A DNA stretch of 61,472 nucleotides. Source: Nemertoderma westbladi. Taxonomy: Eukaryota; Animalia; Xenacoelomorpha. The notes beneath the pieces are model-generated. The model was not told where the DNA came from and made no database searches. It worked only from the letters and a program-made list of their open reading frames with translations. Positions 14,477-61,472 of the stretch are shown one piece after another. Within the stretch, counting starts at the first letter, position 1. Every line of letters starts with the position of its first letter. Position numbers and translations under genes: made by a program. The stretch is from positions 1 through 61,472 of the forward strand of contig JAUCBJ010002569.1 of the NCBI GenBank assembly GCA_032718475.1. Reading direction: 5' to 3'.

Positions 14477-14618
14477 ATAATGATACATTAATACTTAATT
14501 CAATAGCTTACATAATGATACATTAATACTTAATTCAATATCTTACATAATGATACATTAATACAATAGCTTACATAATGATACATTAATACTTAATTCA
14601 ATAGCTTACATAATGATA
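14477..14618. repeat. 35-bp minisatellite (ATAATGATACATTAATACTTAATTCAATAGCTTAC), about 4 copies, in the LINE inter-ORF spacer
   Basis: Copies start at 14477, 14512, 14547 (28-bp shortened copy) and 14575. Confidence 0.9.
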
Positions 14619-14716
14619 GTCTAACTTCCATTATAAATCTTAATTCATGTTGTTATATTAAAAGAGAAAAAGAAAATCATAGAACATATGAAACATTACG
14701 GTTCAGAGAGCTTAAA

Positions 14717-15529: not shown

Positions 15530-15720
15530 CGCTTGCGGTACCGGCTAGCGGTACCGACCCGTTGCCGTTAGATTGTATTATGTAGCAGTGTAGGGTCTAC
15601 TGCCTGACTACAGTATAGAACGATGTCCCGAACGCTGGAATCAGGGAATGAGGCAACTACCTCGTCGTTATACTGTTACTACTCTATCGTGCTATCAGTA
15701 GTCAGGTTTACAGGTCAGAC
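15530..15720 (-). promoter_or_regulatory. Probable structured 5' UTR of the minus-strand LINE
   Basis: Nested stems: CCTGACTAC 15603-15611 with GTAGTCAGG 15698-15706, and AGTATAGAACGA with TCGTTATACT, enclosing two short hairpins. The 5' boundary is uncertain. Confidence 0.5.
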
Positions 15721-15980: not shown

Positions 15981-16469
15981 GACCAAGAAGCAGCAGAACA
16001 GCAACTACCCGCGAGCCGAGAACTTATTTCTCAGCGGTATTCTGTGACAAACCTAGTCTGTAATAATACTTATATATACTATAAGCATACCGGTATTCTA
16101 ATATATTATATATATATCACGCTACACTGAGTAGCAGTATCGGTAATTAATTACTAGGCTAACGGTGATACTGAATTACTAGACTTGCTTAAACTGTAAT
16201 ATAGCAGTAGGCATTCAACTGTACAAACCAACATGTCTGACACAAAGCAAAACCTGTCAGACAGTCTCCTAGATACAACCATATGTGACCCAGACAGGAG
16301 TGTGGAACGTGTGGGACCGAAGTTCAACAGTTTCAGTTTATTTATTTATTTCACTAATATATATATAAAAGTACATACAATATATATAACAAAAAAAAAT
16401 TTCAATCAAAACGACCAAGAAGCAGCAGAACAGCAACTACCCGCGAGCCGAGAACTTATTTCTCAGCGG
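15981..16469 (+). repeat. 57-bp direct repeat (15981-16037 and 16413-16469) flanking a 375-bp AT-rich insert in the gag 5' region
   Basis: Identical GACCAAGAAGCAGCAGAACAGCAACTACCCGCGAGCCGAGAACTTATTTCTCAGCGG occurs twice in the same reading frame. Confidence 0.95.
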
Positions 16470-19400: not shown

Positions 19401-22400
19401 AGAGAACAGATAAGAAAAACTCCTCCTACGTCTCCCAAGAGAATTCAGGTGAGAAAGCCCGAAGAAAGAACGAGTGTGCACAATGTTATTCAAAATAAAG
19501 TAAGCAACATCAAACCGACATGTGCGTTATGTGACGGGACCCACCGTTTGAATATGTGTGATGAATTCCTGAAGAAATCATTAACGGAGAGACGAGAAGT
19601 CATGTGGGATAAGCGGTTGTGTTATAATTGCCTCAGACAAGGACACCAACGGCGAACCTGTTACTCCGACACAAGGTGTGCAAAGTGCGGTGCGAAACAT
19701 CATATCTTGTTGCACACTGAATTCGAACGAAACAGTCCGAGTCAGGTAAGTGATTCCGAACTACATGTCCAATTCAGTGATGTGAACGACACTGACCAAA
19801 GTTCTGAGATGGAAGGATTCTATACGGATGAATTCTCCGACGAAGATGAATCCTGTTACATGATAAATACCGCAGTGTATCGAGCACTTACGTATGAAAA
19901 AGACACAGACAGCGACCTCACCCTAACTACTTCTGATCGACAACCATCTTGGAAAGCGCCACCTTCCAATGTAGGAATCCGAGAATTTCCTGTAGTACAG
20001 TTAAGGGTCCACGGACCTAAAAGGAGTTATGTAGTGAACGCCCTCCTTGACTCCGGTAGTACAGGAACATTCATCGACAAAGAACTAGCCGAAGACATCT
20101 TTGCTGGACAACCCAAGTTCCGAACTAAGCTAAACATGTCAGGAATTATGCAGGTTTGGAAATCTACAGTAATAGCGGATTATTATGTAGGTGAGTTGTC
20201 CACCCCCCAGGATGAACTAGGAGAACATAGTATAAGGTCAGTAAAAATGGTGGCGATAAAGAACTTCGCTACCACCCAAGTGGAACCTTATAACTGGGAT
20301 GAGGACGATTTCACCCAGCAGCTGGAAATACCTAGATTCAACACCGATTACCCTGGAGTGCAAATACTCATCGGTCAAAATGCGCATGAAGCGCTCGAGA
20401 CATTGGAGAAACGGCCCGCTCAACCGCAACCACTACAAGCTTATGCGGGAAGAACTAGAGTGGGTTGGTACTTTACTGGCCCTTCCCGTAGAACTCTCAT
20501 GGAAAGATTACCGAAAGACCAGGTATGTCAAGTGAGAGAATGGGAAGTCGAGGGCAGTGAGTTAGACGATCCAACTGAGGGAACACCATACTCCTCAGAT
20601 AATGACGATGTCCACCAACTTTTCGATGAGGAGAATACCATTGATCTCCTTAAGGAAAACGAGACTTGGCAAAACCAAGTGAACTTATGTCAGCTCCTTC
20701 TTCCATCAGAACGAGACGACTATAACGACGAACTTAATGACGTCATTGAACGTTATAATGCCAAGACTCGGGATGAACACGCCGTACGATTCTTTACTCA
20801 AGAGGCTGTAGAGCCCAATTCCTACGATAAGGCCCTATCGGTAGAGGAAGAAAGAGCCAAGCAGATCCAAGAGACAACTACACGTTTTCTTAAAGATCAA
20901 GGTAGATATGAGATCGGTCTACCTTTCCGAAAGCGAGAACCAAAGTTCGTAAACAACAGACCCTTGGCGGAGAAAAGAATTGCTCAACTACATCGACGCC
21001 TTACGGCAAATTCTTCAGCTAAAGAAATGTATCAAACGCAGTTGAAGAAATTTATTAGCAAGGGATATGCGGAGCTAGTACCGGAAGAAACACCTATAAC
21101 TGAGAGAACGTATTATTTAACTCACCATTACGTTCCCAAACCCGGTAAACCCCATGAGGTACGAGTGGTGTTTGACGGCTCCGCCCTCTATATGGGCCAA
21201 TCCCTTAATTCCGAATTGTTACCCGGACCCAACTTACTCCAATCCTTGTTGGGAATACTCTTAAGATTAAGACAATATTCAATTGCTTTCGCCTCAGATA
21301 TAGAAGGCATGTTCTTACAAGTCAAGGCGCTGGATAGGGATCGAGATAGCCTACGATTTCTGTGGTGGCCTGAAGGAGACCTCAACCAGAAACCGGTGGA
21401 GTACTGGATGACCATCCAGGCTTTTGGGATAATCTCAAGCCCTTCAAACGCCTGTTCAGTGGTGCGCACCACTGCGGATGACAACCGAGAAGCCTTCTCT
21501 AAAGAGGTGATTGACAACATCAAGCGGGATATATACATGGACGATAATCTAAAGTCCCTTCCATCAGTCGAAGAAGCCATTGACGTCGCTAAAGGAACGG
21601 TAGAGTGCTTAAAAAGAGGTGGATTTCGATTAACTAAATTCACCAGCAACTCCCGTGAGTTTCTGGAGTCGATCCCGGTAGAAGATCGAGGAGCGAAAGA
21701 CCTAGATCTAATAAAAGATGATCTCCCAGAAACTAAGACCCTTGGTTTGAAATGGGACACAGAAAGAGATATCCTGTTTTTCCAACTAAAACAGCGAGAT
21801 AATCCAGTTCGGACTAAACGGATTTGTTTAAGTATCCTGAGCACTTATTTCGATCCATTGGGATTTATTAGCCCAGTTATATTGATTGCTCGGAGTTTAG
21901 TACAACAAATGTGGCTTGAAAACCACTCATGGGACGATCCACTTAAGGGAGAATTATTAAAGAAGTGGATGAAATGGGAAGATTCTCTACCAGCCATCGA
22001 GAACTTTATAATTTCCCGTTCATATTTTGGTCATGTTCTCCCTACGTATTCCTATCAACTCCATGTGTTTGGAGACGCCAGCGATATGGGAATAGGTATA
22101 GTAGCCTACCTAAGGGTGGAAACTCCGGACGGAATCAAAGTCGCCTTGGTTACCTCTAAGGCATTGATAAACAACAAGTTGAAAGTTCCTCGAGCGGAGT
22201 TAAAAGCGGCTCTATACGCTACAGCCATCGGCCGGAATGTAACAGAACAGATCGACTATCCACTGGAGAAAACTGTCTATTGGACCGACGCTTTACTCGT
22301 GTTGGAGTATATAACCAATGAAGTCTGTCAGTTCAGCGTCTTCGTTACCAACAGAGTAGCCATTATACTCAGTCGCACAACGATGGATCAATGGAGACAT

Positions 22401-25232: not shown

Positions 25233-26199
25233 ATTGTGTCTATTTTAATATTAAATAATAAAATTACGGGAATAAATTTAAATTCATCTTTTAATGAATT
25301 TGATAAATTGTTATTTTATACAATTTATAATATTCCCAAAATTCCATTAATTAATAGATCATGGGAGCGGAGATTCACCTATTAAGTGTATTAGTGTGCG
25401 AGAATCTCCAATATAGAGTCAATAGCCGATAAAATTCATAAAATCATATATAAAGATGATATTGACCATTAAAGACTTACTATTAAATAGCATCCCAGAT
25501 CTGTATGCATGGGAATTACCCTAATTCTACCGCTAGCTTTCCATAATGTCACCATAGCAACAACCACGCTAGAATTAGAAGCGAGTTAACAGAACAATAA
25601 AAAGCTTGCTCATTGAATAGCATACGGAATAAATAGCACACCGCTAGTATCCAAGGATACATAATAACAACGTGACATTCTGGAAGGCACTTGACTAACG
25701 GACAAATGACCCGAATGTGTGATAGAATGTGTACCATTTGTGACAGTTACGTGGAATTTGTGCGTTTGTAGGTGAATGTTACTACTAAGGTGTGTTTACA
25801 GTAGCGAGTCGCAATTGTGAAAGTAGCCCTAACTCTCCAGTAAGAACCTGAAGTATATCTAAGCCTTTGGGACGGACGGTGGAGTGACTCGTGCTGGTTG
25901 TTGTAGTCGTTGTGCAGCTACGACGTTGGCGATAGGCACATCGGCGAAAGTACACCAGCGCTGAGGATCTCGCACTGTCCGGGGGCAGAGAGGGGTAGGC
26001 AGCGACGCCCGCTCGCCTAAATATAAACTCATTATAATATGGATAAACTTATATAGCAGATATGATTGAGTTGATAGAAGATGATCTTGGTATCAGGGAG
26101 CGATATACTCTACCTTTACAAGCGTTTGTTGATAGCTTGATACGCGGCGACGCTGGTCCAACTACTACGGAGGACGATGGTCGTTATATCTAACCGCCA

Positions 26200-26883
26200 A
26201 TGTCCCGGGAGCAACTTGCGCGTGGGTTGGACTGTAGAAAATTCACCGCTCGCTATACGCATCGTAATGGTACGTATATGGACTTCTTAACTACTGGTCA
26301 TCCTATCGACCTACACGATACGAACGATATAGACACCAAAAGGGAAATGGTTTTATTTAAATATCATACCCAGCGGAAGCGGAACGATAAACTGAGACTC
26401 GAACACGAAAATTCTATTCGAAACCGACTCGAAAGTGCAGATGTTGAAGAGCCGGATAAACGCAGCGACTTCACCAAATACCTGGAATTCTTGAGAGAAA
26501 CCTATCTCGATATTACCAGTCAACAGAATCTAGAAACTCGATATCCTCAAGGTATACATCATGACCGCATGGTAGAACTCAAACGGCTCTATTCCACTAT
26601 GATGTATCTTACCGCCGATCGACCGCTACCTGTTGTACCGGATAGCTTCGAACAGATGGAGGAATATTGTAAGCTGGAGAAAGATCACTCGCGTTTCCCC
26701 TACAAGACGTGCGTCTTTGGTATTATTGCGATGAATGCCCTAGACCCAACCAACAAACGGAAAGACCTAAACATCCGCGGAGACGTTGCACTAAACACGG
26801 TTTTACTCGCTATACTTGCGGGAGTTTCGAGCGAAATTTGTTTGACGTATCACCTACGCTCGTTCGACTCAGACGATCCTTAA
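26200..26883 (+). CDS. Hypothetical 227-aa protein, candidate accessory ORF of the Bel/Pao element
   Basis: ATG-to-TAA ORF with globular amino-acid composition, between pol and a candidate 3' LTR. No family recognised. Confidence 0.5.
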   Translation: MSREQLARGLDCRKFTARYTHRNGTYMDFLTTGHPIDLHDTNDIDTKREMVLFKYHTQRKRNDKLRLEHENSIRNRLESADVEEPDKRSDFTKYLEFLRETYLDITSQQNLETRYPQGIHHDRMVELKRLYSTMMYLTADRPLPVVPDSFEQMEEYCKLEKDHSRFPYKTCVFGIIAMNALDPTNKRKDLNIRGDVALNTVLLAILAGVSSEICLTYHLRSFDSDDP

Positions 26884-26891
26884 ATAAACCA

Positions 26892-27191
26892 ATGATCAGA
26901 GTTTCGGAATACTCGATCAGACCTCCTCATTCCCTAGTGAGACCTCAGACTCTTGATCCTATTAGTATGACGGATCCTCCCGAGCTGTACTCACTGTTCA
27001 AAGATCTAGTGTTACCTGAACAATTAGTCGGTGGCACCCCGGTTGTGGGCTTCCTAGATATTAGCCCATCCTACCTAGCCGGATTGGGACGCGGACATTT
27101 AATATCGCCGTTTAACCCTTACCATCGTCCCGGCTTAACACGATATAACCTGTCACCAAAGTGGCGGAGAGCGTTGTACCAAATGAGTTAG
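26892..27191 (+). CDS. Hypothetical 99-aa Pro-rich protein
   Basis: ATG lies 8 nt after the stop of the previous ORF, in the same CCA-ATG context. Confidence 0.3.
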   Translation: MIRVSEYSIRPPHSLVRPQTLDPISMTDPPELYSLFKDLVLPEQLVGGTPVVGFLDISPSYLAGLGRGHLISPFNPYHRPGLTRYNLSPKWRRALYQMS

Positions 27192-34366: not shown

Positions 34367-37300
34367 CTAGGTATTTGTTGATTGTTTCAACAAAGCAGAA
34401 AAATATCCCATTTCATTAGCCAGTAATTCATCAGGGGTGCCAAATTCAACAACCCTTCCACCATCCATTACTAAGATCTTATCTGAGTCCATGACAGTAT
34501 TAAGTCTGTGGGCGATAGTAAGAACAGTACAGTCAGAAAACTTACTTCTTATTGTCTCTTGAATAACCAAATCAGTTTTATTATCAACATTGGCTGTAGC
34601 TTCATCCACAACAATTATCTTATTCTTCCTCAGCATAGCTCTAGCAAGACAGATTAGTTGTCTTTCACCAACACTAAAATTAGTTCCATACTCGAATACT
34701 TTTGAATTTAAACCAATATTATCAATATTTATTGATAAAGATGATTTTCTTGATATTTTATTTTCTTTATTTGATACTTCATTGGACATATTATTATGTT
34801 TAAAAAAAACACCATGTTCTTCAAGAATACTTGATGTCCTTTCCCTAACAGCTTTATCAAGCTTTACATCACCCAATGTCATCCAAATATCTGCATCGGA
34901 GAATTCTTTAAAAGGGTCAAGATTATATCGCAGAGTTCCAGAGAATAATACAGGATCTTGAGGAATAATTGAAATACATTTTCTGAGATCATTGAGATTC
35001 ACTTTGGTCACATCAGTACCACCAATCATCAAAGAACCAGTTGTTTCAGTTAGTTGGAACAATGCAGCTGTTAACGAACTCTTTCCTGCACCAGTACGTC
35101 CAACAATTCCTATTTTTTCTCTGGCATTGACATTAAAAGAAACATTTATTAAAACTTGTGGCAGCGATTCATGGTATGATAAACAGAGTTCTTGAAAGCA
35201 GATTGATGGATTATTGATAAATACATTTGGAAGATTTGGTTCCCCACTTTTGACAATCATATTTTTCTCTTGATCCAATTTTGTATAATTATAAACTCTT
35301 CCAACTGATGTCATGAGTTCTTCAACTTCTGAAATTGTTCTCACCAAATACTGGAATGCCATCATGGTTGTGAAAGCATAAGTAAGTGATAAACCAACTG
35401 ATCCGACATCTAAACTATCGGAGTTGAGCACAGCTGTAAGTGCTGTAAATGTTATAAATATGTTACAAAATGCATCAATGGAGAAGCCAAACCATCTACT
35501 AACAAGTAGATAAACAATCCAAACACGAGAATGAGCATCTAAATGACCATATAATTCATATTCAAATCGCTTTCTTGCATCTAGTGCTCGAATGACACTC
35601 AGTCCCTCCAATGAAACGGATATGTGGTGGAATATTGGAGTGCGAAGTGATCCCTCAATTTTTTTAACTTGTTTTGATGTCTGTACATAAAAGTGTCTCT
35701 GAGTTATTAAGATAATAGCCAAAGGAAATACAGGAATCAACATATATGGGTTCATGATAATCACAAATACAACAATGCAAAAAAATTTGATGCCAATGCG
35801 AATGACATCAGTCAATTTTTGCAAGAGTAAATTATCTATTATACCAATATCCTTCGAAAATTTATTCAAAATATCACCAACACTGTTTGTGTCAAAGAAA
35901 TAACACGTGGCATACATTATCTTCTGAAACATGTCATTATGCAATCGAATGGCAGCCCGTAACAATGTTTTAATTGTGACAATCGTAGATGATCCAGTGA
36001 GAATTAAAGAGATAAAGATTAAGCAGCCATAAACAGCAATGATATAATCTCTTGTAAATGGCAGCATTAACATACTAGTTACCAAATAGTAAAAAAATGA
36101 TATATTAACATAAGATGGAATAATATCTAATATGATATTGTTATTAATAAGGGAACCATTGGCAAAATAAAGTGTATTTGAATTATTATTGTATGGAAAG
36201 TCGATGCCAGCCCTATTTCCATAAACTGACCATTGTGCTAACCACCAATCACACATCATTTTACTTATTTGCACTAAAAGTGCAAAGAACAGCATAGTAA
36301 ATAATAAAGTGAAACCTGTTGCTTTTATATAGTAAATATAATAACCCATATTTATATTTGGATTACTTGTTGTAGATGAACCTTTCAATGTACTAATCCT
36401 TTCAGTACTCATAACTTTATACTGAGGAGTTACATTATCTGCCATATCTTTCTGTATTTTATTTTCATTAATGTGAAATATATGGTGTTGATTCAGATAA
36501 TTGTAAACATCTATATATTTTCCATATATCACAGACTTTCCTTTATCAAGTGCAAGAACTCTAGTAGATTGTTGCAAATATTGAATTTGGTGTGTTGCCA
36601 AGATCACTGTTTTTTCTTTCAAATATCCCCTAATGCACTTTTCAAACAAACAAGCGCCAACATTCGTATCAACAGCTGAAAGTGGATCATCAAGAAGATA
36701 AATATCTGCATCAGCATAAACAGCTCTAGCTAATGATATTCTAGCCCGTTGACCCCCTGATAATGCTAATCCACGTTCACCAACCAAGGAATTGTGTCCC
36801 TCTGGAAAACTACCAATATCATCTTCAAGTTCACAAACTTTTATGACTTTATAATATTTATCCTCAATAAACTCTTCTCCAAATACAACATTCTCCATCA
36901 CTGTACCCGAAAATACCCAACCACTTTGTGGACTATAGCTAAGTTTACCACCAACTTGGATTCTCCCAGATACTAAATGTAATTCTCCAAGGATTGTATT
37001 CAACAAAGATGACTTCCCAGACCCAACAGGGCCAACAATGCAAATAAGTTCTGATGAATTTGCCATTAGATTCATATTCTCAATGGCATAGGAACTCAAA
37101 TTCTTTACACTATAACGAGAGCATACGGAATCCAATATTAAAGTTCCTCTGTTTGTTATACATGATATACTATTGCTTATATTTTCCTGAATTTCATTCG
37201 AAGGTGAATGGGAGAGTAAGATTTCATTTTCATCCATAACTCTGTAGCCATCAGTTGTTGGTTCTTTTAAATCTATAAGAAGAAAATTCTCAATTCGCTG

Positions 37301-37422
37301 TATTGAAACTCGAACTCTTATAAAATGCATAACCCCTTTCAAGCCCAGTAGAATCACAAAATGATTAAAAACAAATAAGAGACTCATAACTGGAAAAACT
37401 GTTGTTGGATTTAGTTCATTTC
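34367..37422 (-). CDS. ABCC4-like: ABC transporter subfamily C (MRP4-like), exon 3: end of TMD1, NBD1, TMD2, NBD2
   Basis: Walker A GPVGSGKS and GRTGAGKS; signatures LSGGQRAR and FSVGERQL; LLDDPLSAVD; DEATANVD; IAHRL. Acceptor TTCTTTAG|GA, phase 1. Confidence 0.93.
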
Positions 37423-39108
37423 CTAAAGAATAAGCAATGAAGAGGTCACATGCATGCATCCAGCCATCCCCATAAATGTCAGCAATCTCCATGAATGTAA
37501 GTTCATAATTGTTTATAAGGTCCTAACCAATCATGAAAAACATTTAAGGAAAGTTATTATAAATATATGATATATGATATGATTAATTTCGTTATTTTTA
37601 TTTAGTAGGTCATATTAATTGATACAATCATTAGTAATATGTGAGGGAGTAAGGGTCTAAGCCTCGATACCAAAAATATAAATATTAAAAATTTAATTCT
37701 TATTTCCAATACACAAAACCAAAATCTGTGTTCTAGAACACTAATATATATTTTTTTTAATGTATCTGATCCATCCCGTTACACTCCACCTACCTGGAGA
37801 ATGGGGAGGTGGACTGATTTACGAATCAGTTCAGGTATGTAGCCAATATTCCATACCAGATAATGTAGGAAGCAATGTTAGCCATGAGATGATTTAATAA
37901 CTCATCCCAGGGGAAAGGGGCTAATACAGGGTAAAGGGGGCATGAGAATATAGGAGTGGAATAAGCCAAACAATGGGAGGACCACAGCTGGTTGTAACAA
38001 GGTGTATCGATTGGTTGGCAGGTTTACTTGTTAGGGCTGTGTAATACATTCCCCCTAATTTTCCTCATATATAAACATACTAGTAAAGAATACTCAATTC
38101 AAAATAACTATTCACATACTTGTATGTGAAGTAGCACTTTACAGTGTGATGATCTGAGTGCTTTGTTACACGAACAAACATAGTGAGTGAGTGAAAATAA
38201 AGCCACGAGGATCAGAACACTGTAAAATACTTTGCAACAAGTATGTATGTAGTTTTATTCCAAAATTGTAGCATTACGAAATGATTGTATATATATTTAT
38301 AAGTGATAGAAACTGCACAAAATAAATTAGTTGCTGTATAAATAAATGTAAAAATGACATAAATTTTGTTATGAAAAAGTTAGCTTATATTTATGGTGGC
38401 ATTTGGAGCCATGTTAATAGTTTATAGCTACTGGATATTAATAGCAACTGGTAGGTAATGCCTTTCTGGTTGTCAGGCAATTAATTATAAATTCCAACTA
38501 TTGACTATGTGGTAACCATGACGACATGACTTTACGGTCACACCGTCGGGGCATTACATAAATAATAATACACCAATACAATACTAAATGTACAGGCCAA
38601 TAAAATAATGTAATCTCCTCTAAAGTTGTAAGGGGCTAAATAACAATTCGCTGTTAATACTAGTGGCATTGAGTAATCCTACAATTTTGGAAAAATATAC
38701 TATGCAACTATAAAATTACATAGCACATGTGTCTAGAATGAAGAATATCCATGGAAACAGCAATCTTTTGTGGAATAATAAAACAATATAATGTTAAATA
38801 AAATTATTATTTATAATTATAATTATTTTTAAATTATTTGGGTCGGAATTATCCTATGCTGGATCTGGACAATGAACATTTTCCATGAAAATTTCATTCG
38901 ATCTCTGAGTGGGTCGGAAATGTCCCTGTCGCAATTGCCCGGGTCGGAATTGTCGGATCATGCCACTGTAAACTGATCATATCCCTTAAGCTTCCTTCAT
39001 CCCATTCAGACCTTATCTCATTCAGAGCATCATAATAATCGCATTTTACATATAAAATATGATGAAAGCTTTAAAGGACATTCAAGATCTGGCTGGATGC
39101 TTACGGAC

Positions 39109-39925
39109 CTGTTTCTCCTCCTAAGAAATGATGGGACACAAAGATGATGAATGTGACAATTAAAATGAAACTTTCTGGCATTCGAGTTAATAATCCTTCA
39201 CAGAAATATGTCTTTTGTGTCTCCTTTATTTCTGAACTACGTGATTTATTAATTCTTCTACAGAAAGCCTTCTCCCAAGCATATAATTTGATGATTCGCA
39301 TACCCATAATAACTTCATTCATTAGTTTTATTCTTGAATCTGTCAATTCACAAGCTTTCTTTTTATAGTGGGCTATCCATTTACCAATAAATATTTGAGA
39401 GGGAAAATATATACAGAAAAAAATAAATCCAAAAACAGAAGCCAGACCAATGAGTCTATAGATTAGTCCAAATATCACAAAAATAACCAAAGGCATAATA
39501 ATGGAATATGACATTAGAGGTAGAGCTGTTGTAAAAATATCACTATCAGTTGATATTAAATTGTTGACCTTCCCAATTGTAACTTTATTTAACGTTCTTC
39601 GATTCATATTTAGGAGTTTTCTGTAAATCATGGTTTGCAGTCCAATCCGTATCCTGACTTCTATGATATAGAAATGGTGAAACATTCTATGGCCTCCCAC
39701 AGAACTGAATACAGAACACAGAGTCAATGTAAAAGTATATAGTAATGCTTCAGTTGAACCCATGGTGCTATTGGGAACAAACTTCTGCAATAATTTCCCT
39801 AATACAAGGCTCTGTGCTATATTGCAAGATACTACAAATATAGGTAAAGGCAATAAAACCAGAATATCTCGCCATAATGTTAGGAAGAGAGCGCGATGTA
39901 GGAGTGGATTCTTCTTCTTGCATTC
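39109..39925 (-). CDS. ABCC4-like: ABCC4-like exon 2 (TMD1)
   Basis: Acceptor TTTTCTTCTAG|GAA (phase 0). MIYRKLL, GKVNNLISTD and MNEVIMGMRIIKLYAWEKAF are present. Donor ACAG|GTCCGT (phase 1) is compatible with exon 3. Confidence 0.88.
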
Positions 39926-48455: not shown

Positions 48456-49017
48456 TTATTTGTTTTCATTTCTAGTGTTGTTCTGTACATGTCTACTATG
48501 ATGGGATAGATGAGCTTTAAACACTCAGGTATTTTAAAGGGGGGACACCATCTTCTCCACTGGCAAATACTTAGTAAGAACTAATCTATCTGTGCAACTA
48601 ACAAGGAATTTGCTAAATATTATCAGTTTTTTCAACTGGGTATTCAGCCTAATTTGATCGCCGACCAGGTTCGGCGATGACTCAATACAACACGGCACGG
48701 TCTGAACATTTTCCATATTTCCATGATTACATTATTAACAACACTAGATTTATATAAATCAATATATAATGTTTATTGATAGTAACAATGTGTAGGCAAG
48801 CTGTATTTTTCGAGGTGTTTGTTATTATACATTTATTATAGGAAGGGATCTAGGGGTCTTAGCCTCGAATGATAAGTTTATTTTACCGAAAATAACTTAT
48901 CTTTTATTGGCGCAATTGTAGGACTAATCCCATCACATCCGTACTTTTTAACTGGGTAGTGTACAAATTTAGGAATCGCGTAATTTTTCTTGAAATTAAT
49001 ATCTCATATCTCTCCAA

Positions 49018-49060
49018 ACCACGTACGCGTTTCGACCTTACTGGGTCTCATCAGCGTGGT
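49018..49060 (-). ncRNA. Minimal type I hammerhead ribozyme (intact copy)
   Basis: ACCACG-CTGATGA-GACC(CAGTAA)GGTC-GAAA-CGCGTA-CGTGGT: 6-bp stem I, 4-bp stem II, palindromic stem III ACGCGT, GUA cleavage triplet. Confidence 0.93.
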
Positions 49061-49203
49061 GTCGGATTCGAACCTGGGACCTAATAATAATAACAAACAC
49101 CTCGAAAAATACAGCTTGCCTACACATTGTTACTATCAATAATCAAAAATCAGGGGCTAATAAAATGGCAGCTGGCTTTGAAATTAATACTCCATATCTC
49201 AAG

Positions 49204-49262
49204 AACCTGTGGCCTAGTGGTTGTAGTCTCGGCTTCCACCTCGAGGTGCCAGGTTTGAATCC
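49204..49262 (+). promoter_or_regulatory. tRNA-derived Pol III head (A and B boxes), copy 1
   Basis: A box TGGCCTAGTGG at 49210-49220. B box is mutated (GGTTTGAATCC). Loop CTTCCAC resembles tRNA-Gly(TCC). Confidence 0.7.
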
Positions 49263-49265
49263 GAC

Positions 49266-49308
49266 ACCATGCTGATGAGACCCAGTAAGGTCGAAACGCG
49301 TATGTGGT
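49266..49308 (+). ncRNA. Minimal type I hammerhead ribozyme
   Basis: CTGATGA at 49272-49278, GAAA at 49293-49296, cleavage predicted after 49302. Stem I has two G-U pairs. Confidence 0.88.
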
Positions 49309-49611
49309 TTGGAGAGATATGAGATATTAATTTCAAGAAAAATTACGCGATTCCTAAATTTGTACACTACCCGGTTAAAAAGTACGCATGTGATGGGATT
49401 AGTCCTACAATTGCGCCAATATAAGATAAGTTATTTTCGGTAAAATAAACTTATCATTCGAGGTTACCCCTAGATCCCTTCCTATAATAAATGTATAATA
49501 ACAAACACCTCGAAAAATACAGCTTGCCTACACATTGTTACTATCAATAATCAAAAATCAGGGGCTAATAAAATGGCAGCTGGCTTTGAAATTAATACTC
49601 CATATCTCAAG

Positions 49612-49670
49612 AACCTGTGGCCTAGTGGTTGTAGTCTCGGCTTCCACCTCGAGGTCCCAGGTTCGAATCC
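49612..49670 (+). promoter_or_regulatory. tRNA-derived Pol III head (A and B boxes), copy 2
   Basis: A box TGGCCTAGTGG and consensus B box GGTTCGAATCC at 49660-49670. No acceptor stem, so this is not a tRNA gene. Confidence 0.78.
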
Positions 49671-49673
49671 GAC

Positions 49674-49716
49674 ACAACGCTGATGAGACCCAGTAAAGTC
49701 GAAACGCGTACGTGGT
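49674..49716 (+). ncRNA. Minimal type I hammerhead ribozyme with one mismatch each in stems I and II
   Basis: ACAACG-CTGATGA-GACC(CAGTAA)AGTC-GAAACGCGTA-CGTGGT. Confidence 0.8.
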
Positions 49717-50429
49717 TTGGAGAGATATGAGATATTAATTTCAAGAAAAATTACGCGATTCCTAAATTTGTACACTACCCGGTTAAAAAGTACGCATGTG
49801 ATGGGATTAGTCCTACAATTGCGCCAATAAAAGATAAGTTATTTTCGGTAAAATAAACTTATCATTTGAGGTTAAGACCCCTAGATTCCTTCCTATAATA
49901 AATGTATAATATATAATGTAGTATATTATGTATCGCATGTCCGAGTTCTCTCGACCTAGTAGTAGTAGTATATTATGTAGGCCTAGAACAACTGTGCTGT
50001 TGACAACAACATACAATAATGTTCTTAATCCAATCGAAAGTAAAAAACGTGTAGGCCTATAACAAATACGGATAAAAATTAACCAATCACATTCAGATTC
50101 AATACATCTGTAATTGATACAAAAGGGTTACTACGTTTCCCATTCTACTGTTCAGAAGCAGCTGTTGAAAGAGGCTAACCCAAAGGTGACAAAATTGCAG
50201 CGAAAAATAAACTCCGTCATAGAGAATACCGCAATTGTGGACCAAATGATTGCAGTCACACTGAAAGATACAATAAAATAATACCCTTTGGATTCCTAAT
50301 CCATGCCTGTATAGATGGTTGGTCCAGAATGGTACTTTAGGCAACAGTAACCAATAACAACCCAAATGTAATAGCTAACTTTCTCCTTGAAGCTCTCAAG
50401 ATCTACGATTGCCGTGGCTTTTAGAAACA

Positions 50430-50531
50430 GATTGTGGTACTGAAAATGGTGCTACGGCTGACACTCAGTGCTACGGCTGACACTCAGGATTGTGGTACTG
50501 AAAATGGTGCTACGGCTGACACTCAGTGCTA
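50430..50531. repeat. Nested short duplications at the left edge of the 682-bp array
   Basis: GATTGTGGTACTGAAAATG occurs at 50430 and 50488; GTGCTACGGCTGACACTCA occurs three times. Confidence 0.9.
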
Positions 50532-53500
50532 CATAAGATGATAATTGATGTTAACGACATACTGACTAACAGGGGGTTGGTATGTATATATTAAATTAAA
50601 TTAAAGGAAGAACAGGAGTCTTACACCCCCAATAAAAAATATAGAATCAGGACATTTAGCCCAAAATATTTCTCGACCCCTAGGGTCATCGAAAGAACAA
50701 CAAACACACAAACACAAACAAATATAAATACATGCTAAACATACAGGTATGTGTCGCAACCCTAACCCTAAGCCTACCCGCCATACACTAAATGATACCG
50801 TTAATAAACTGCACAATAGCTAAGCCTATATTCTATAAGAAAATATATGACAATTTTGTCGCCGTGAAAGGGGTATGACTGAGGCAAAAATAATTAATTT
50901 GTGAAAAATATGGTTGCGTTTCGGTGTCTTGGACCAGTACGCGCTAATCCTCGACACCTCGTCAGCTGGACAGGGAATTAGCCAAGCCTATCTATAATGC
51001 ACCAATGACCTAAAATAATCGCACCATCAACTCTGTTACCACCTAGCCCAAAACAGAAGTCAGACCACAGAACACAGGAACCCTACCCTATAGGCCTATG
51101 GTAAGTAAATATGTTACCAATGGGAAACTGGTGGAATGCTAGGGCACACACACAGTACAAAATTTAAATAAGATTTTATGATTTGCAGTAATGTTGGAAT
51201 TCTGCTCCACTTTCATAAGATGATAATTGATGTTAACGACATACTGACTAACAGGGGGTTGGTATGTATATATTAAATTAAATTAAAGGAAGAACAGGAG
51301 TCTTACACCCCCAATAAAAAATATAGAATCAGGACATTTAGCCCAAAATATTTCTCGACCCCTAGGGTCATCGAAAGAACAACAAACACACAAACACAAA
51401 CAAATATAAATACATGCTAAACATACAGGTATGTGTCGCAACCCTAACCCTAAGCCTACCCGCCATACACTAAATGATACCGTTAATAAACTGCACAATA
51501 GCTAAGCCTATATTCTATAAGAAAATATATGACAATTTTGTCGCCGTGAAAGGGGTATGACTGAGGCAAAAATAATTAATTTGTGAAAAATATGGTTGCG
51601 TTTCGGTGTCTTGGACCAGTACGCGCTAATCCTCGACACCTCGTCAGCTGGACAGGGAATTAGCCAAGCCTATCTATAATGCACCAATGACCTAAAATAA
51701 TCGCACCATCAACTCTGTTACCACCTAGCCCAAAACAGAAGTCAGACCACAGAACACAGGAACCCTACCCTATAGGCCTATGGTAAGTAAATATGTTACC
51801 AATGGGAAACTGGTGGAATGCTAGGGCACACACACAGTACAAAATTTAAATAAGATTTTATGATTTGCAGTAATGTCGGAATTCTGCTCCACTTTCATAA
51901 GATGATAATTGATGTTAACGACATACTGACTAACAGGGGGTTGGTATGTATATATTAAATTAAATTAAAGGAAGAACAGGAGTCTTACACCCCCAATAAA
52001 AAATATAGAATCAGGACATTTAGCCCAAAATATTTCTCGACCCCTAGGGTCATCGAAAGAACAACAAACACACAAACACAAACAAATATAAATACATGCT
52101 AAACATACAGGTATGTGTCGCAACCCTAACCCTAAGCCTACCCGCCATACACTAAATGATACCGTTAATAAACTGCACAATAGCTAAGCCTATATTCTAT
52201 AAGAAAATATATGACAATTTTGTCGCCGTGAAAGGGGTATGACTGAGGCAAAAATAATTAATTTGTGAAAAATATGGTTGCGTTTCGGTGTCTTGGACCA
52301 GTACGCGCTAATCCTCGACACCTCGTCAGCTGGACAGGGAATTAGCCAAGCCTATCTATAATGCACCAATGACCTAAAATAATCGCACCATCAACTCTGT
52401 TACCACCTAGCCCAAAACAGAAGTCAGACCACAGAACACAGGAACCCTACCCTATAGGCCTATGGTAAGTAAATATGTTACCAATGGGGAACTGGTGGAA
52501 TGCTTGGGCACACACACAGTACAAAATTTAAATAAGATTTTATGATTTGCAGTAATGTCGGAATTCTGCTCCACTTTCATAAGATGATAATTGATGTTAA
52601 CGACATACTGACTAACAGGGGGTTGGTATGTATATATTAAATTAAATTAAAGGAAGAACAGGAGTCTTACACCCCCAATAAAAAATATAGAATCAGGACA
52701 TTTAGCCCAAAATATTTCTCGACCCCTAGGGTCATCGAAAGAACAACAAACACACAAACACAAACAAATATAAATACATGCTAAACATACAGGTATGTGT
52801 CGCAACCCTAACCCTAAGCCTACCCGCCATACACTAAATGATACCATTAATAAACTGCACAATAGCTAAGCCTATATTCTATAAGAAAATATATGACAAT
52901 TTTGTCGCCGTGAAAGGGGTATGACTGAGGCAAAAATAATTAATTTGTGAAAAATATGGTTGCATTTCGGTGTCTTGGACCAGTACGCGCTAATCCTCGA
53001 CACCTCGTCAGCTGGACAGGGAATTAGCCAAGCCTATCTATAATGCACCAATGACCTAAAATAATCGCACCATCAACTCTGTTACCACCTAGCCCAAAAC
53101 AGAAGTCAGACCACAGAACACAGGAACCCTACCCTATAGGCCTATGGTAAGTAAATATGTTACCAATGGGAAACTGGTGGAATGCTAGGGCACACACACA
53201 GTACAAAATTTAAATAAGATTTTATGATTTGCAGTAATGTCGGAATTCTGCTCCACTTTCATAAGATGATAATTGATGTTAACGACATACTGACTAACAG
53301 GGGGTTGGTATGTATATATTAAATTAAATTAAAGGAAGAACAGGAGTCTTACACCCCCAATAAAAAATATAGAATCAGGACATTTAGCCCAAAATATTTC
53401 TCGACCCCTAGGGTCATCGAAAGAACAACAAACACACAAACACAAACAAATATAAATACATGCTAAACATACAGGTATGTGTCGCAACCCTAACCCTAAG

Positions 53501-56500
53501 CCTACCCGCCATACACTAAATGATACCGTTAATAAACTGCACAATAGCTAAGCCTATATTCTATAAGAAAATATATGACAATTTTGTCGCCGTGAAAGGG
53601 GTATGACTGAGGCAAAAATAATTAATTTGTGAAAAATATGGTTGCGTTTCGGTGTCTTGGACCAGTACGCGCTAATCCTCGACACCTCGTCAGCTGGACA
53701 GGGAATTAGCCAAGCCTATCTATAATGCACCAATGACCTAAAATAATCGCACCATCAACTCTGTTACCACCTAGCCCAAAACAGAAGTCAGACCACAGAA
53801 CACAGGAACCCTACCCTATAGGCCTATGGTAAGTAAATATGTTACCAATGGGAAACTGGTGGAATGCTAGGGCACACACACAGTACAAAATTTAAATAAG
53901 ATTTTATGATTTGCAGTAATGTCGGAATTCTGCTCCACTTTCATAAGATGATAATTGATGTTAACGACATACTGACTAACAGGGGGTTGGTATGTATATA
54001 TTAAATTAAATTAAAGGAAGAACAGGAGTCTTACACCCCCAATAAAAAATATAGAATCAGGACATTTAGCCCAAAATATTTCTCGACCCCTAGGGTCATC
54101 GAAAGAACAACAAACACACAAACACAAACAAATATAAATACATGCTAAACATACAGGTATGTGTCGCAACCCTAACCCTAAGCCTACCCGCCATACACTA
54201 AATGATACCGTTAATAAACTGCACAATAGCTAAGCCTATATTCTATAAGAAAATATATGACAATTTTGTCGCCGTGAAAGGGGTATGACTGAGGCAAAAA
54301 TAATTAATTTGTGAAAAATATGGTTGCGTTTCGGTGTCTTGGACCAGTACGCGCTAATCCTCGACACCTCGTCAGCTGGACAGGGAATTAGCCAAGCCTA
54401 TCTATAATGCACCAATGACCTAAAATAATCGCACCATCAACTCTGTTACCACCTAGCCCAAAACAGAAGTCAGACCACAGAACACAGGAACCCTACCCTA
54501 TAGGCCTATGGTAAGTAAATATGTTACCAATGGGAAACTGGTGGAATGCTAGGGCACACACACAGTACAAAATTTAAATAAGATTTTATGATTTGCAGTA
54601 ATGTCGGAATTCTGCTCCACTTTCATAAGATGATAATTGATGTTAACGACATACTGACTAACAGGGGGTTGGTATGTATATATTAAATTAAATTAAAGGA
54701 AGAACAGGAGTCTTACACCCCCAATAAAAAATATAGAATCAGGACATTTAGCCCAAAATATTTCTCGACCCCTAGGGTCATCGAAAGAACAACAAACACA
54801 CAAACACAAACAAATATAAATACATGCTAAACATACAGGTATGTGTCGCAACCCTAACCCTAAGCCTACCCGCCATACACTAAATGATACCGTTAATAAA
54901 CTGCACAATAGCTAAGCCTATATTCTATAAGAAAATATATGACAATTTTGTCGCCGTGAAAGGGGTATGACTGAGGCAAAAATAATTAATTTGTGAAAAA
55001 TATGGTTGCGTTTCGGTGTCTTGGACCAGTACGCGCTAATCCTCGACACCTCGTCAGCTGGACAGGGAATTAGCCAAGCCTATCTATAATGCACCAATGA
55101 CCTAAAATAATCGCACCATCAACTCTGTTACCACCTAGCCCAAAACAGAAGTCAGACCACAGAACACAGGAACCCTACCCTATAGGCCTATGGTAAGTAA
55201 ATATGTTACCAATGGGAAACTGGTGGAATGCTAGGGCACACACACAGTACAAAATTTAAATAAGATTTTATGATTTGCAGTAATGTCGGAATTCTGCTCC
55301 ACTTTCATAAGATGATAATTGATGTTAACGACATACTGACTAACAGGGGGTTGGTATGTATATATTAAATTAAATTAAAGGAAGAACAGGAGTCTTACAC
55401 CCCCAATAAAAAATATAGAATCAGGACATTTAGCCCAAAATATTTCTCGACCCCTAGGGTCATCGAAAGAACAACAAACACACAAACACAAACAAATATA
55501 AATACATGCTAAACATACAGGTATGTGTCGCAACCCTAACCCTAAGCCTACCCGCCATACACTAAATGATACCGTTAATAAACTGCACAATAGCTAAGCA
55601 TATATTCTATAAGAAAATATATGACAATTTTGTCACCGTGAAAGGGGTATGACTGAGGCAAAAATAATTAATTTGTGAAAAATATGGTTGCGTTTCGGTG
55701 TCTTGGACCAGTACGCGCTAATCCTCGACACCTCGTCAGCTGGACAGGGAATTAGCCAAGCCTATCTATAATGCACCAATGACCTAAAATAATCGCACCA
55801 TCAACTCTGTTAGCACCAATCCCAAAACAGAAGTCAGACCACAGAACACAGGAACCCTACCCTATAGGCCTATGGTAAGTAAATATGTTACCAATGGGAA
55901 ACTGGTGGAATGCTAGGGCACACACACAGTACAAAATTTAAATAAGATTTTATGATTTGCAGTAATGTCGGAATTCTGCTCCACTTTCATAAGATGATAA
56001 TTGATGTTAACGACATACTGACTAACAGGGGGTTGGTATGTATATATTAAATTAAATTAAAGGAAGAACAGGAGTCTTACACCCCCAATAAAAAATATAG
56101 AATCAGGACATTTAGCCCAAAATATTTCTCGACCCCTAGGGTCATCGAAAGAACAACAAACACACAAACACAAACAAATATAAATACATGCTAAACATAC
56201 AGGTATGTGTCGCAACCCTAACCCTAAGCCTACCCGCCATACACTAAATGATACCGTTAATAAACTGCACAATAGCTAAGCCTATATTCTATAAGAAAAT
56301 ATATGACAATTTTGTCGCCGTGAAAGGGGTATGACTGAGGCAAAAATAATTAATTTGTGAAAAATATGGTTGCGTTTCGGTGTCTTGGACCAGTACGCGC
56401 TAATCCTCGACACCTCGTCAGCTGGACAGGGAATTAGCCAAGCCTATCTATAATGCACCAATGACCTAAAATAATCGCACCATCAACTCTGTTACCACCT

Positions 56501-59500
56501 AGCCCAAAACAGAAGTCAGACCACAGAACACAGGAACCCTACCCTATAGGCCTATGGTAAGTAAATATGTTACCAATGGGAAACTGGTGGAATGCTAGGG
56601 CACACACACAGTACAAAATTTAAATAAGATTTTATGATTTGCAGTAATGTCGGAATTCTGCTCCACTTTCATAAGATGATAATTGATGTTAACGACATAC
56701 TGACTAACAGGGGGTTGGTATGTATATATTAAATTAAATTAAAGGAAGAACAGGAGTCTTACACCCCCAATAAAAAATATAGAATCAGGACATTTAGCCC
56801 AAAATATTTCTCGACCCCTAGGGTCATCGAAAGAACAACAAACACACAAACACAAACAAATATAAATACATGCTAAACATACAGGTATGTGTCGCAACCC
56901 TAACCCTAAGCCTACCCGCCATACACTAAATGATACCGTTAATAAACTGCACAATAGCTAAGCCTATATTCTATAAGAAAATATATGACAATTTTGTCGC
57001 CGTGAAAGGGGTATGACTGAGGCAAAAATAATTAATTTGTGAAAAATATGGTTGCGTTTCGGTGTCTTGGACCAGTACGCGCTAATCCTCGACACCTCGT
57101 CAGCTGGACAGGGAATTAGCCAAGCCTATCTATAATGCACCAATGACCTAAAATAATCGCACCATCAAGTCTGTTACCACCTAGCCCAAAACAGAAGTCA
57201 GACCACAGAACACAGGAACCCTACCCTATAGGCCTATGGTAAGTAAATATGTTACCAATGGGAAACTGGTGGAATGCTAGGGCACACACACAGTACAAAA
57301 TTTAAATAAGATTTTATGATTTGCAGTAATGTCGGAATTCTGCTCCACTTTCATAAGATGATAATTGATGTTAACGACATACTGACTAACAGGGGGTTGG
57401 TATGTATATATTAAATTAAATTAAAGGAAGAACAGGAGTCTTACACCCCCAATAAAAAATATAGAATCAGGACATTTAGCCCAAAATATTTCTCGACCCC
57501 TAGGGTCATCGAAAGAACAACAAACACACAAACACAAACAAATATAAATACATGCTAAACATACAGGTATGTGTCGCAACCCTAACCCTAAGCCTACCCG
57601 CCATACACTAAATGATACCGTTAATAAACTGCACAATAGCTAAGCCTATATTCTATAAGAAAATATATGACAATTTTGTCGCCGTGAAAGGGGTATGACT
57701 GAGGCAAAAATAATTAATTTGTGAAAAATATGGTTGCGTTTCGGTGTCTTGGACCAGTACGCGCTAATCCTCGACACCTCGTCAGCTGGACAGGGAATTA
57801 GCCAAGCCTATCTATAATGCACCAATGACCTAAAATAATCGCACCATCAACTCTGTTACCACCTAGCCCAAAACAGAAGTCAGACCACAGAACACAGGAA
57901 CCCTACCCTATAGGCCTATGGTAAGTAAATATGTTACCAATGGGAAACTGGTGGAATGCTAGGGCACACACACAGTACAAAATTTAAATAAGATTTTATG
58001 ATTTGCAGTAATGTCGGAATTCTGCTCCACTTTCATAAGATGATAATTGATGTTAACGACATACTGACTAACAGGGGGTTGGTATGTATGTATTAAATTA
58101 AATTAAAGGAAGAACAGGAGTCTTACACCCCCAATAAAAAATATAGAATCAGGACATTTAGCCCAAAATATTTCTCGACCCCTAGGGTCATCGAAAGAAC
58201 AACAAACACACAAACACAAACAAATATAAATACATGCTAAACATACAGGTATGTGTCGCAACCCTAACCCTAAGCCTACCCGCCATACACTAAATGATAC
58301 CGTTAATAAACTGCACAATAGCTAAGCCTATATTCTATAAGAAAATATATGACAATTTTGTCGCCGTGAAAGGGGTATGACTGAGGCAAAAATAATTAAT
58401 TTGTGAAAAATATGGTTGCGTTTCGGTGTCTTGGACCAGTACGCGCTAATCCTCGACACCTCGTCAGCTGGACAGGGAATTAGCCAAGCCTATCTCTAAT
58501 GCACCAATGACCTAAAATAATCGCACCATCAACTCTGTTACCACCTAGCCCAAAACAGAAGTCAGACCACAGAACACAGGAACCCTACCCTATAGGCCTA
58601 TGGTAAGTAAATATGTTACCAATGGGAAACTGGTGGAATGCTAGGGCACACACACAGTACAAAATTTAAATAAGATTTTATGATTTGCAGTAATGTCGGA
58701 ATTCTGCTCCACTTTCATAAGATGATAATTGATGTTAACGACATACTGACTAACAGGGGGTTGGTATGTATATATTAAATTAAATTAAAGGAAGAACAGG
58801 AGTCTTACACCCCCAATAAAAAATATAGAATCAGGACATTTAGCCCAAAATATTTCTCGACCCCTAGGGTCATCGAAAGAACAACAAACACACAAACACA
58901 AACAAATATAAATACATGCTAAACATACAGGTATGTGTCGCAACCCTAACCCTAAGCCTACCCGCCATACACTAAATGATACCGTTAATAAACTGCACAA
59001 TAGCTAAGCCTATATTCTATAAGAAAATATATGACAATTTTGTCGCCGTGAAAGGGGTATGACTGAGGCAAAAATAATTAATTTGTGAAAAATATGGTTG
59101 CGTTTCGGTGTCTTGGACCAGTACGCGCTAATCCTCGACACCTCGTCAGCTGGACAGGGAATTAGCCAAGCCTATCTATAATGCACCAATGACCTAAAAT
59201 AATCGCACCATCAACTCTGTTACCACCTAGCCCAAAACAGAAGTCAGACCACAGAACACAGGAACCCTACCCTATAGGCCTATGGTAAGTAAATATGTTA
59301 CCAATGGGAAACTGGTGGAATGCTAGGGCACACACACAGTACAAAATTTAAATAAGATTTTATGATTTGCAGTAATGTCGGAATTCTGCTCCACTTTCAT
59401 AAGATGATAATTGATGTTAACGACATACTGACTAACAGGGGGTTGGTATGTATATATTAAATTAAATTAAAGGAAGAACAGGAGTCTTACACCCCCAATA

Positions 59501-61472
59501 AAAAATATAGATTCAGGACATTTAGCCCAAAATATTTCTCGACCCCTAGGGTCATCGAAAGAACAACAAACACACAAACACAAACAAATATAAATACATG
59601 CTAAACATACAGGTATGTGTCGCAACCCTAACCCTAAGCCTACCCGCCATACACTAAATGATACCGTTAATAAACTGCACAATAGCTAAGCCTATATTCT
59701 ATAAGAAAATATATGACAATTTTGTCGCCGTGAAAGGGGTATGACTGAGGCAAAAATAATTAATTTGTGAAAAATATGGTTGCGTTTCGGTGTCTTGGAC
59801 CAGTACGCGCTAATCCTCGACACCTCGTCAGCTGGACAGGGAATTAGCCAAGCCTATCTATAATGCACCAATGACCTAAAATAATCGCACCATCAACTCT
59901 GTTACCACCTAGCCCAAAACAGAAGTCAGACCACAGAACACAGGAACCCTACCCTATAGGCCTATGGTAAGTAAATATGTTACCAATGGGACACTGGTGG
60001 AATGCTAGGGCACACACACAGTACAAAATTTAAATAAGATTTTATGATTTGCAGTAATGTCAGAATTCTGCTCCACTTTCATAAGATGATAATTGATGTT
60101 AACGACATACTGACTAACAGGGGGTTGGTATGTATATATTAAATTAAATTAAAGGAAGAACAGGAGTCTTACACCCCCAATAAAAAATATAGAATCAGGA
60201 CATTTAGCCCAAAATATTTCTCGACCCCTAGGGTCATCGAAAGAACAACAAACACACAAACACAAACAAATATAAATACATGCTAAACATACAGGTATGT
60301 GTCGCAACCCTAACCCTAAGCCTACCCGCCATACACTAAATGATACCGTTAATAAACTGCACAATAGCTAAGCCTATATTCTATAAGAAAATATATGACA
60401 ATTTTGTCGCCGTGAAAGGGGTATGACTGAGGCAAAAATAATTAATTTGTGAAAAATACGGTTGCGTTTCGGTGTCTTGGACCAGTACGCGCTAATCCTG
60501 GACACCTCGTCAGCTGGACAGGGAATTAGCCAAGCCTATCTATAATGCACCAATGACCTAAAATAATCGCACCATCAACTCTGTTACCACCTAGCCCAAA
60601 ACAGAAGTCAGACCACAGAACACAGGAACCCTACCCTATAGGCCTATGGTAAGTAAATATGTTACCAATGGGAAACTGGTGGAATGCTAGGGCACACACA
60701 CAGTACAAAATTTAAATAAGATTTTATGATTTGCAGTAATGTCGGAATTCTGCTCCACTTTCATAAGATGATAATTGATGTTAACGACATACTGACTAAC
60801 AGGGGGTTGGTATGTATATATTAAATTAAATTAAAGGAAGAACAGGAGTCTTACACCCCCAATAAAAAATATAGAATCAGGACATTTAGCCCAAAATATT
60901 TCTCGACCCCTAGGGTCATCGAAAGAACAACAAACACACAAACACAAACAAATATAAATACATGCTAAACATACAGGTATGTGTCGCAACCCTAACCCTA
61001 AGCCTACCCGCCATACACTAAATGATACCGTTAATAAACTGCACAATAGCTAAGCCTATATTCTATAAGAAAATATATGACAATTTTGTCGCCGTGAAAG
61101 GGGTATGACTGAGGCAAAAATAATTAATTTGTGAAAAATATGGTTGCGTTTCGGTGTCTTGGACCAGTACGCGCTAATCCTCGACACCTCGTCAGCTGGA
61201 CAGGGAATTAGCCAAGCCTATCTATAATGCACCAATGACCTAAAATAATCGCACCATCAACTCTGTTACCACCTAGCCCAAAACAGAAGTCAGACCACAG
61301 AACACAGGAACCCTACCCTATAGGCCTATGGTAAGTAAATATGTTACCAATGGGACACTGGTGGAATGCTAGGGCACACACACAGTACAAAATTTAAATA
61401 AGATTTTATGATTTGCAGTAATGTCGGAATTCTGCTCCACTTTCATAAGATGATAATTGATGTTAACGACAT
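50532..61472. repeat. 682-bp tandem array, 16 full near-identical units, continuing past the window end
   Basis: CATAAGATGATAATTG recurs at 50532+682k (51214 ... 61444). Only scattered substitutions between units. Confidence 0.99.
50916..50982 (-). ncRNA. Non-circularly permuted hammerhead ribozyme candidate, first of 16 copies at +682k (last 61146-61212)
   Basis: Minus strand reads GCTAATTC-CCTGT-CCAG-CTGACGA-GGTGTC-GAGGATTAGC-GCGT-A-CTGG-TCCAA-GACACC-GAAACGC. All core nucleotides and stems I, II and III are present. Confidence 0.8.

Follow-up and report, generated by a model that had tools for sequence, protein, structure and literature searches.

A predicted type-CSG hammerhead ribozyme in each unit of a retrozyme-like tandem array in an animal genome

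Published rearranged hammerheads and the motif of the array

Eckert, Friedrich, Weinberg and Weinberg (2023, PMC10085705) split the hammerhead ribozyme into blocks C, G and S and named the C-S-G order type CSG. In their description, the type comprises two unique sequences, five in all, from soil metagenome DNA, and CSG-1 and CSG-2 cut at the predicted site at 0.004 and 0.026 per min, respectively. The passages on these types give no CSG or SGC example from a known organism and assign type CSG no host, context or role; the authors graded the evidence for its biological relevance as weaker. Type-SGC hammerheads (HRIMA-1), reported in the same paper, are likewise non-circular with four helices and were validated by compensatory mutants, but their block order differs from that described below and they come from metatranscriptome RNA near hairpin ribozymes. 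The pseudoknot hammerhead of Zhan et al. (2024, PMC11300833) also adds a pseudoknot and a further helix to the hammerhead core; according to its description, a loop pseudoknot replaces helix II and a stem-loop IV is present, whereas the motif studied here has a two-strand stem II and reordered blocks. In a literature search for later reports, which covered few subscription journals, the term 'type-CSG' appeared only in Eckert et al. (2023), and a non-circular hammerhead in an animal genome was not found. One 2026 paper refers, in its accessible text, to alternative hammerhead permutations by citation alone.

The window, i.e. the whole stretch of 61,472 nucleotides analyzed here (contig JAUCBJ010002569.1, Nemertoderma westbladi), had been described in a first-pass annotation as containing a hammerhead of non-circularly permuted topology with a fourth helix. 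All coordinates and pairings of this proposal were confirmed on the minus strand, and the order proved to be that of the published type CSG with the fourth helix in the same place. The accompanying caution about novelty was justified, since the architecture has been published and cleaves in vitro (Eckert et al., 2023). While the hammerhead reading stood, the competing hairpin and the tandem-array context described below were absent from the annotation.

The hammerhead core is complete on the minus strand (50982-50916, a span of 67 nt), with 4, 6 and 4 bp in stems I, II and III plus an 8-bp fourth helix, and its CUGA-block, cleavage-site block and GAAA-block follow each other in the order C-S-G. 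Read 5' to 3', the motif begins with the 8-nt 5' strand of the fourth helix (stem I/II interaction helix), GCUAAUUC (50975..50982), which rests on a pairing check and on a compensatory pair in a subfamily contig, and with a 5-nt linker to stem I (50970..50974). Block C (50953..50969) consists of the stem I 5' strand CCAG, the core CUGACGA (50965-50959) and the stem II 5' strand GGUGUC. After a 2-nt GA linker, the 3' strand of the fourth helix, GGAUUAGC (50943..50950), leads into block S (50934..50942), in which the stem III 5' strand GCGU is followed by the cleavage-site A17 and the stem I 3' strand CUGG. A second 5-nt linker (50929..50933), with a common variant at 50930, separates the 3' strands of stems I and II, and block G (50916..50928) ends the motif with the stem II 3' strand GACACC, GAAA (50922-50919) and the stem III 3' strand.

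Stem I (50969-50966 with 50937-50934) has 4 Watson-Crick pairs, stem II (50958-50953 with 50928-50923) has 6 including G10.1-C11.1, and stem III (50942-50939 with 50919-50916) has 4 pairs, A15.1-U16.1 among them; the fourth helix (50982-50975 with 50950-50943) is made of 7 Watson-Crick pairs and one U-G. CUGANGA, GAAA, UH, G10.1-C11.1 and A15.1-U16.1 are thus all present. Stems I-III flank the core blocks and are entirely Watson-Crick in 15 of the 16 copies, with one G-U in the remaining copy. There, as the first-pass annotation had noted, the variant at 52964 keeps stem III paired, the core-adjacent G-C becoming G-U. The triplet GUA occupies 50940-50938, and from the hammerhead consensus the cut is predicted between 50938 and 50937.

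Judged by eye from the published figure and alignment, the motif resembles CSG-1/2 in the C-S-G order, all core letters, the 6-bp stem II, the length of ~66-67 nt and the very short link between fourth helix and stem III. The 8-bp fourth helix matches as well (compared with Supplementary Fig. 10 of Eckert et al., 2023), with stem I downstream of its 5' strand and stems II and III on either side of its 3' strand. In contrast, the stem sequences are unrelated, N7 is C and the triplet is GUA, which is known in natural hammerheads (PMC1636495). Stems I/III measure 4/4 bp as opposed to 6/5 bp in CSG-1/2, and the linkers of 5 nt (fourth helix to stem I) and 2 nt have a length of 0 nt there. Whereas CSG-1/2 come from soil DNA, this motif is found in each unit of a high-copy animal array. 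The topology itself was already known; new are its occurrence in an animal, the retrozyme-like array and a sequence unrelated to the published ones.

A descriptor scan of the whole window in all six block orders returned 16 matches, all of them C-S-G and one per unit. The cyclic order C-G-S of types I, II and III was absent within 100 nt, C-S-G being the only order found. No match in any block order was obtained in 60 dinucleotide shuffles of 38.4 kb on both strands. Likewise, first-order Markov models trained on the unit or the flank produced no motif match in 60 Mb, although stems I, II and III of ≥4 bp each and a span of ≤70 were demanded but not the fourth helix. The claim that standard searches overlook the motif was borne out: Rfam gave 0 matches in the window at gathering scores and, at E ≤ 5 over 48500-52000, nothing over the C-S-G motif, its matches there being the type I element close to the array and one sRNA match due to chance. 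Other ribozymes were also absent from the 682-bp unit in this E-value scan. The published RNAmotif descriptor for CSG demands CUGAUGAG and 4 pairs before UH, and this motif fails it.

To look for homologues, four pattern scans were followed by a pairing filter on the 397 loci returned (37 + 120 viral, 120 metagenome and 120 prokaryote genome); three of the scans spanned 9, 40 and 52 of 64 parts, and the published CSG contigs were not among the returns. The filter left 15 loose rows at 13 loci, 8 of them in CSG order; stems I and III reached ≥4 together in none. BLAST of the scan loci gave no match to the 682-bp unit, and a family-specific pattern had 0 matches in viral contigs. No homologue outside this organism was found in these prokaryotic, viral and metagenome scans, which are unlikely places for an animal repeat. 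A Cytophagales genome contains a loose C-S-G match (L324:498-554) with stems of 4, 9 and 3 bp and without a fourth helix, which appears to lie in coding-like sequence and is probably due to chance, and the pairing filter also returned a conventional type II hammerhead match in a viral contig (L064:100-157).

The 682-bp unit and its family

The motif occurs once in each of 16 full 682-bp units which, together with a further 29 bp, form a tandem array on the minus strand (50532..61472) that runs off the window end. The array measures at least 10.9 kb, its right end lying outside the window. Identity between the units is 99.4-100%, and 19 letters in total deviate from the majority. The predicted cut-to-cut monomer (50938..51619, minus strand) is 682 nt long, non-coding and U/G-rich, with 38-39% G+C (~38.7% for the unit). 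There are no ORFs above 72 codons in the unit, and nothing similar to the unit was found elsewhere in the window, the 408-bp element described in the last section included.

At the left junction (50430..50532), a 45-nt direct duplication with a spacing of 58 is accompanied by three 20-nt flank repeats, and the array begins where the second copy of the duplication ends. The duplication and the 20-nt repeats may be an insertion scar, or older. The junction is located 406 nt downstream of the cut site. That the array does not start at the cut site agrees with a template that was circular or multimeric, and also with DNA recombination. One variant is common to units 13 and 15, which are not adjacent, suggesting DNA-level copying. 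A TTAGGG-like run near 50760-50775 was considered as a telomere primer and rejected, as it lies on the RNA-sense strand, the wrong one with respect to the available description of EN-minus Penelope elements.

Public runs of one organism (organism A) from three studies contain the unit in highly repeated form. In run X2, single contigs within the unit reach a depth of ~8,300 as compared to ~112 on the flank; contig depth does not equal copy number, and summed depth was not used as such. Diverged pieces of the unit are present in many low-depth contigs. The unit thus belongs to a large family that is both dispersed and arrayed. Organisms C and D belong to the study that also gave run X3; their runs had 0 contigs with the unit, which is no proof of absence. 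Contigs of run X5 (depth 3-6) were set aside as expression evidence, since X5 was merely guessed to be RNA. In X1, X2 and X3, contigs end their match at 50942 and equivalent positions, five bases from the predicted cut, and one such X3 contig (depth 124) continues into other sequence. Such ends could mean that some copies begin close to the cut site, or that a shorter subfamily exists.

The unit resembles animal non-LTR retrozymes in its non-coding tandem copies, each with one hammerhead, in its low G+C content (below the 45-50% of that family) and in its dispersed and arrayed occurrence. Its 682 bp fall in the range of 51-972 bp given by Li, Clavereau and Pollet (2026, bioRxiv 10.64898/2026.07.22.740005) but exceed the 150-450 bp given by Cervera and de la Pena (2020, PMC7229834). 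Animal retrozymes are described in these accounts as having type I hammerheads and highly self-paired circles, whereas this unit has a type-CSG hammerhead and ordinary structure: the whole monomer is no more structured than shuffled sequence (z = -0.12, 20 shuffles), with 29 pairs above a probability of 0.9. The unit would behave like a non-LTR retrozyme yet lacks the type I hammerhead that defines that family.

Competing folds, sequence variation and a proposed route of propagation

Nested folding favours a hairpin in which a 7-bp helix (50950-50944 with 50937-50931) continues stem II and a 6-nt loop contains the cut site. The segment 50950-50944 is both part of a fourth-helix strand and the 5' arm of this competing hairpin, which cannot coexist with stem I or the fourth helix. 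The hairpin at 50960-50920 is unusually stable (z = -4.9; 0 of 500 shuffles). In the lowest-energy nested fold, stem II is intact and CUGACGA and GAAACGC are unpaired. The folding program cannot represent pseudoknots, and nested probabilities leave the winner between the two folds undecided. When transcripts growing from three 5' starts were folded, the fourth helix had a probability of 0.66-0.78 until stem I was complete, and the hairpin reached 0.78-1.0 once stem II was made. This modelled series fits a co-transcriptional cleavage window, and co-transcriptional cleavage has been proposed for natural hammerheads in the literature available. Stem II and the 7-bp helix also join the 5' and 3' ends of the monomer with a probability >0.9, in both linear and circular form. 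Pairing of 50918-50912 with 50761-50755, which might lock the stem III 3' strand from downstream, had a probability of 0.06 and was dropped.

The sequence variation of the family was then compared with both folds. In the array, 2 of the 19 variants lie inside the 67-nt motif, which is the expected share; one makes the G-U in stem III, the other sits in the GA linker, and both are tolerated. Two motif positions vary at ≥1% depth in run X1, and again both changes, a stem II U-A to U-G and a linker change, are tolerated. All four single-site variants hence preserve the core and the pairs. Since 62 of the 201 possible substitutions would be tolerated, the p value of four out of four is 0.009; weighting transitions fourfold raises it to 0.028. 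This evidence for selection is modest because the variant table omits changes near contig ends and below 1%.

A contig of a diverged subfamily (X3 record 14; 420 nt, depth 123) carries changes at both 50981 and its partner 50944, turning C-G into G-C in the fourth helix, as judged by eye in this one contig, where the 50944 change lies in a 33-letter loose end before 50950 of which 30 letters are visible. The contig retains block S, the 3' strands of stems I and II and GAA, and its visible core letters are intact, the stem III 3' strand lying outside them. The linker joining stems I and II is longer and rewritten, and one G is missing, so that one distal fourth-helix pair is lost and 7 are left. 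The covariation observed amounts to this one double change (fourth helix, one contig) and two wobble changes, with 0 double changes in stems I-III. There are hints, on thin evidence, that the hairpin is also maintained: the linker variant seen most often gives the hairpin another pair (-20.9 vs -19.8 kcal/mol), and the X3 subfamily retains, judged by eye, a 6-bp version built from partly different bases. We regard it as highly probable that the motif is a selected ribozyme fold, and we expect that it probably cleaves.

The explanation that we favour, with reasonable though far from full confidence and by analogy with non-LTR retrozymes, is that the intact type-CSG motifs of the units would cut minus-strand read-through RNA into 682-nt monomers, which would become circles and then DNA. 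It is less likely that the motif stems from a once functional ribozyme, now mostly trapped in the hairpin or untranscribed, and that the array is an ordinary satellite growing by DNA recombination. The dominance of the hairpin in nested folds, the length of the array (≥10.9 kb) with one variant common to two units, and several contigs of low depth, which differ at 9-14 places and have as many as 12 gaps across the motif and which we take as decayed copies, agree with such a satellite. However, the common variants and the diverged subfamily preserve the core and the helices, and the double change in the fourth helix would matter only to the active fold, this helix being incompatible with the hairpin.

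A further explanation accepts the ribozyme as real but takes the unit for the pseudo-LTR or 3' tail that forms the terminal repeat in a larger, autonomous retroelement with its gene beyond the window, so that cutting trims the element RNA and circles are incidental. Retrozymes are related to Penelope pseudo-LTRs, and Naiad elements lack canonical hammerheads, some having split core halves, according to the descriptions available; moreover, the right end of the array lies outside the window and some contigs match mainly the ribozyme region and then diverge. We nevertheless consider this improbable, as at least 16 near-identical units, ORFs of ≤72 codons and contigs at a depth of ~8,300 argue that the unit multiplies on its own.

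Alternatively, block S of one unit might be cut by blocks C and G of another, in which the hairpin serves as a long stem II; these blocks would then act as a type I hammerhead in trans or across ~650 nt. In the lowest-energy nested fold the hairpin does preserve stem II, and CUGACGA and GAAACGC stay single-stranded; dimeric hammerheads are described from amphibian retrozymes. Such cutting has little probability in our view: the substrate would be bound by just 4+4 bp while a hairpin of its own occupies its stem I strand, a compensatory double change is seen in one contig in the fourth helix, whose formation rules out the hairpin, and CSG-1/2 are reported to cleave as single 77-78-nt transcripts. 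A chance likeness within a satellite unit is hardly credible, for although only one independent sequence family is available and homologues in other organisms were not found, 60 Mb of Markov sequence and 60 shuffles gave 0 matches with the 8-bp fourth helix at the published CSG position not yet counted.

Propagation of the unit as a retrozyme would start with minus-strand transcription across the array. During transcription, the fourth helix is predicted to form first and to sequester the hairpin strand, and stems I, II and III would then close around it as pseudoknots. Judging from hammerhead chemistry and from CSG-1/2, cis cleavage after GUA would leave a 2',3'-cyclic phosphate and a 5'-OH and release 682-nt monomers. 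The 5' end of a monomer is predicted to pair with its 3' end via stem II and the 7-bp competing helix, with a 6-nt 3' overhang; the paired ends would be offered to an RtcB-type ligase, and the ribozyme of the circle would be left off. Self-ligation is also possible, because all three core stems span two cleavage products in the C-S-G order. In the published experiments described to date for mussel and axolotl retrozymes, RtcB circularised 30-80% in vitro and self-ligation yielded 1-3%. A retrotransposon reverse transcriptase acting in trans, most likely Penelope-like by analogy with retrozymes, would turn the RNA into tandem DNA, and the array may grow longer by duplication at the DNA level. 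A Penelope-like gene was not found in the window. The repeat transcripts are likely to be cut into units that would circularise and spread as a parasitic element. Points against this explanation are the Xenopus non-cleavers (8 of 9 predicted Xenopus retrozyme dimers reportedly failed to cleave in vitro), the short stems I and III, the hairpin, the variant of units 13 and 15 and the ordinary structure of the monomer.

More tentatively, and with the chances rather against it, we propose that an animal retrozyme family uses an active type-CSG hammerhead as a two-state switch, in which a multi-pseudoknot cuts only during transcription, after which the hairpin clamps the ends for ligation and silences the circle. 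The motif may have arisen within a tandem array, one type I hammerhead contributing blocks C and S and the next copy of the pair block G, an origin that is speculation. If the retrozyme explanation is true, type CSG gains a third sequence family, a host for in vivo tests and a likely job. Surveys of retrozymes and Penelope elements with type I descriptors would then leave a class of elements undetected, a point of relevance to the reported lack of canonical hammerheads in Naiad elements. The predicted cut-then-clamp switch could help to make circular RNA, and the array origin, if true, would supply the duplication route to a non-circular permutation that Eckert et al. (2023) thought lacking.

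Neighbouring features of the window

A 408-bp element ends 620 bp from the array. It is present as two tandem copies on the plus strand (49087-49911) and as a head-to-head inverted partial copy on the minus strand (48770-49082), the copies being 96-97% alike. Each copy contains a minimal type I hammerhead with a palindromic stem III and the triplet GUA (cores at 49272 and 49680 on the plus strand and 49054 on the minus strand), to which Rfam HH9 assigns E-values of 0.0012-2.6. Words that we take to be A- and B-box-like stand just before these hammerheads, and ARAGORN found no tRNA in the element. The element looks like a conventional Penelope-type retrozyme or SINE. Its hammerhead and the CSG motif have the stem III letters and the triplet in common and nothing else. 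The presence of this type I hammerhead element nearby suggests that Penelope-type machinery acted in the vicinity. A tandem and head-to-head arrangement is described for Penelope-like elements in the literature available.

The window also contains BEL/Pao, LINE-type endonuclease and reverse transcriptase remnants, which, together with the protein matches of the transporter gene below, place it in an animal genome. A LINE-like remnant with an ORF1-like frame and an endonuclease frame occupies 12852-15544 on the minus strand, and a BEL/Pao retrotransposon ORF at 16200-24419 extends over 2739 uninterrupted codons with an alanine-rich coiled N-terminal part. An array of an 18-bp unit spans 10.4 kb (2498-12869; ~563 copies, 91% matches). 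At 26194-27191, two overlapping plus-strand ORFs of 229 and 172 codons are without a Pfam match. An ABCC4/MRP4-like transporter gene is found on the minus strand at 34367-39925, with an unusually long uninterrupted frame of 1051 codons; among the 120 matches listed for it, only animal-named or unnamed proteins appear, at 34-41% identity.
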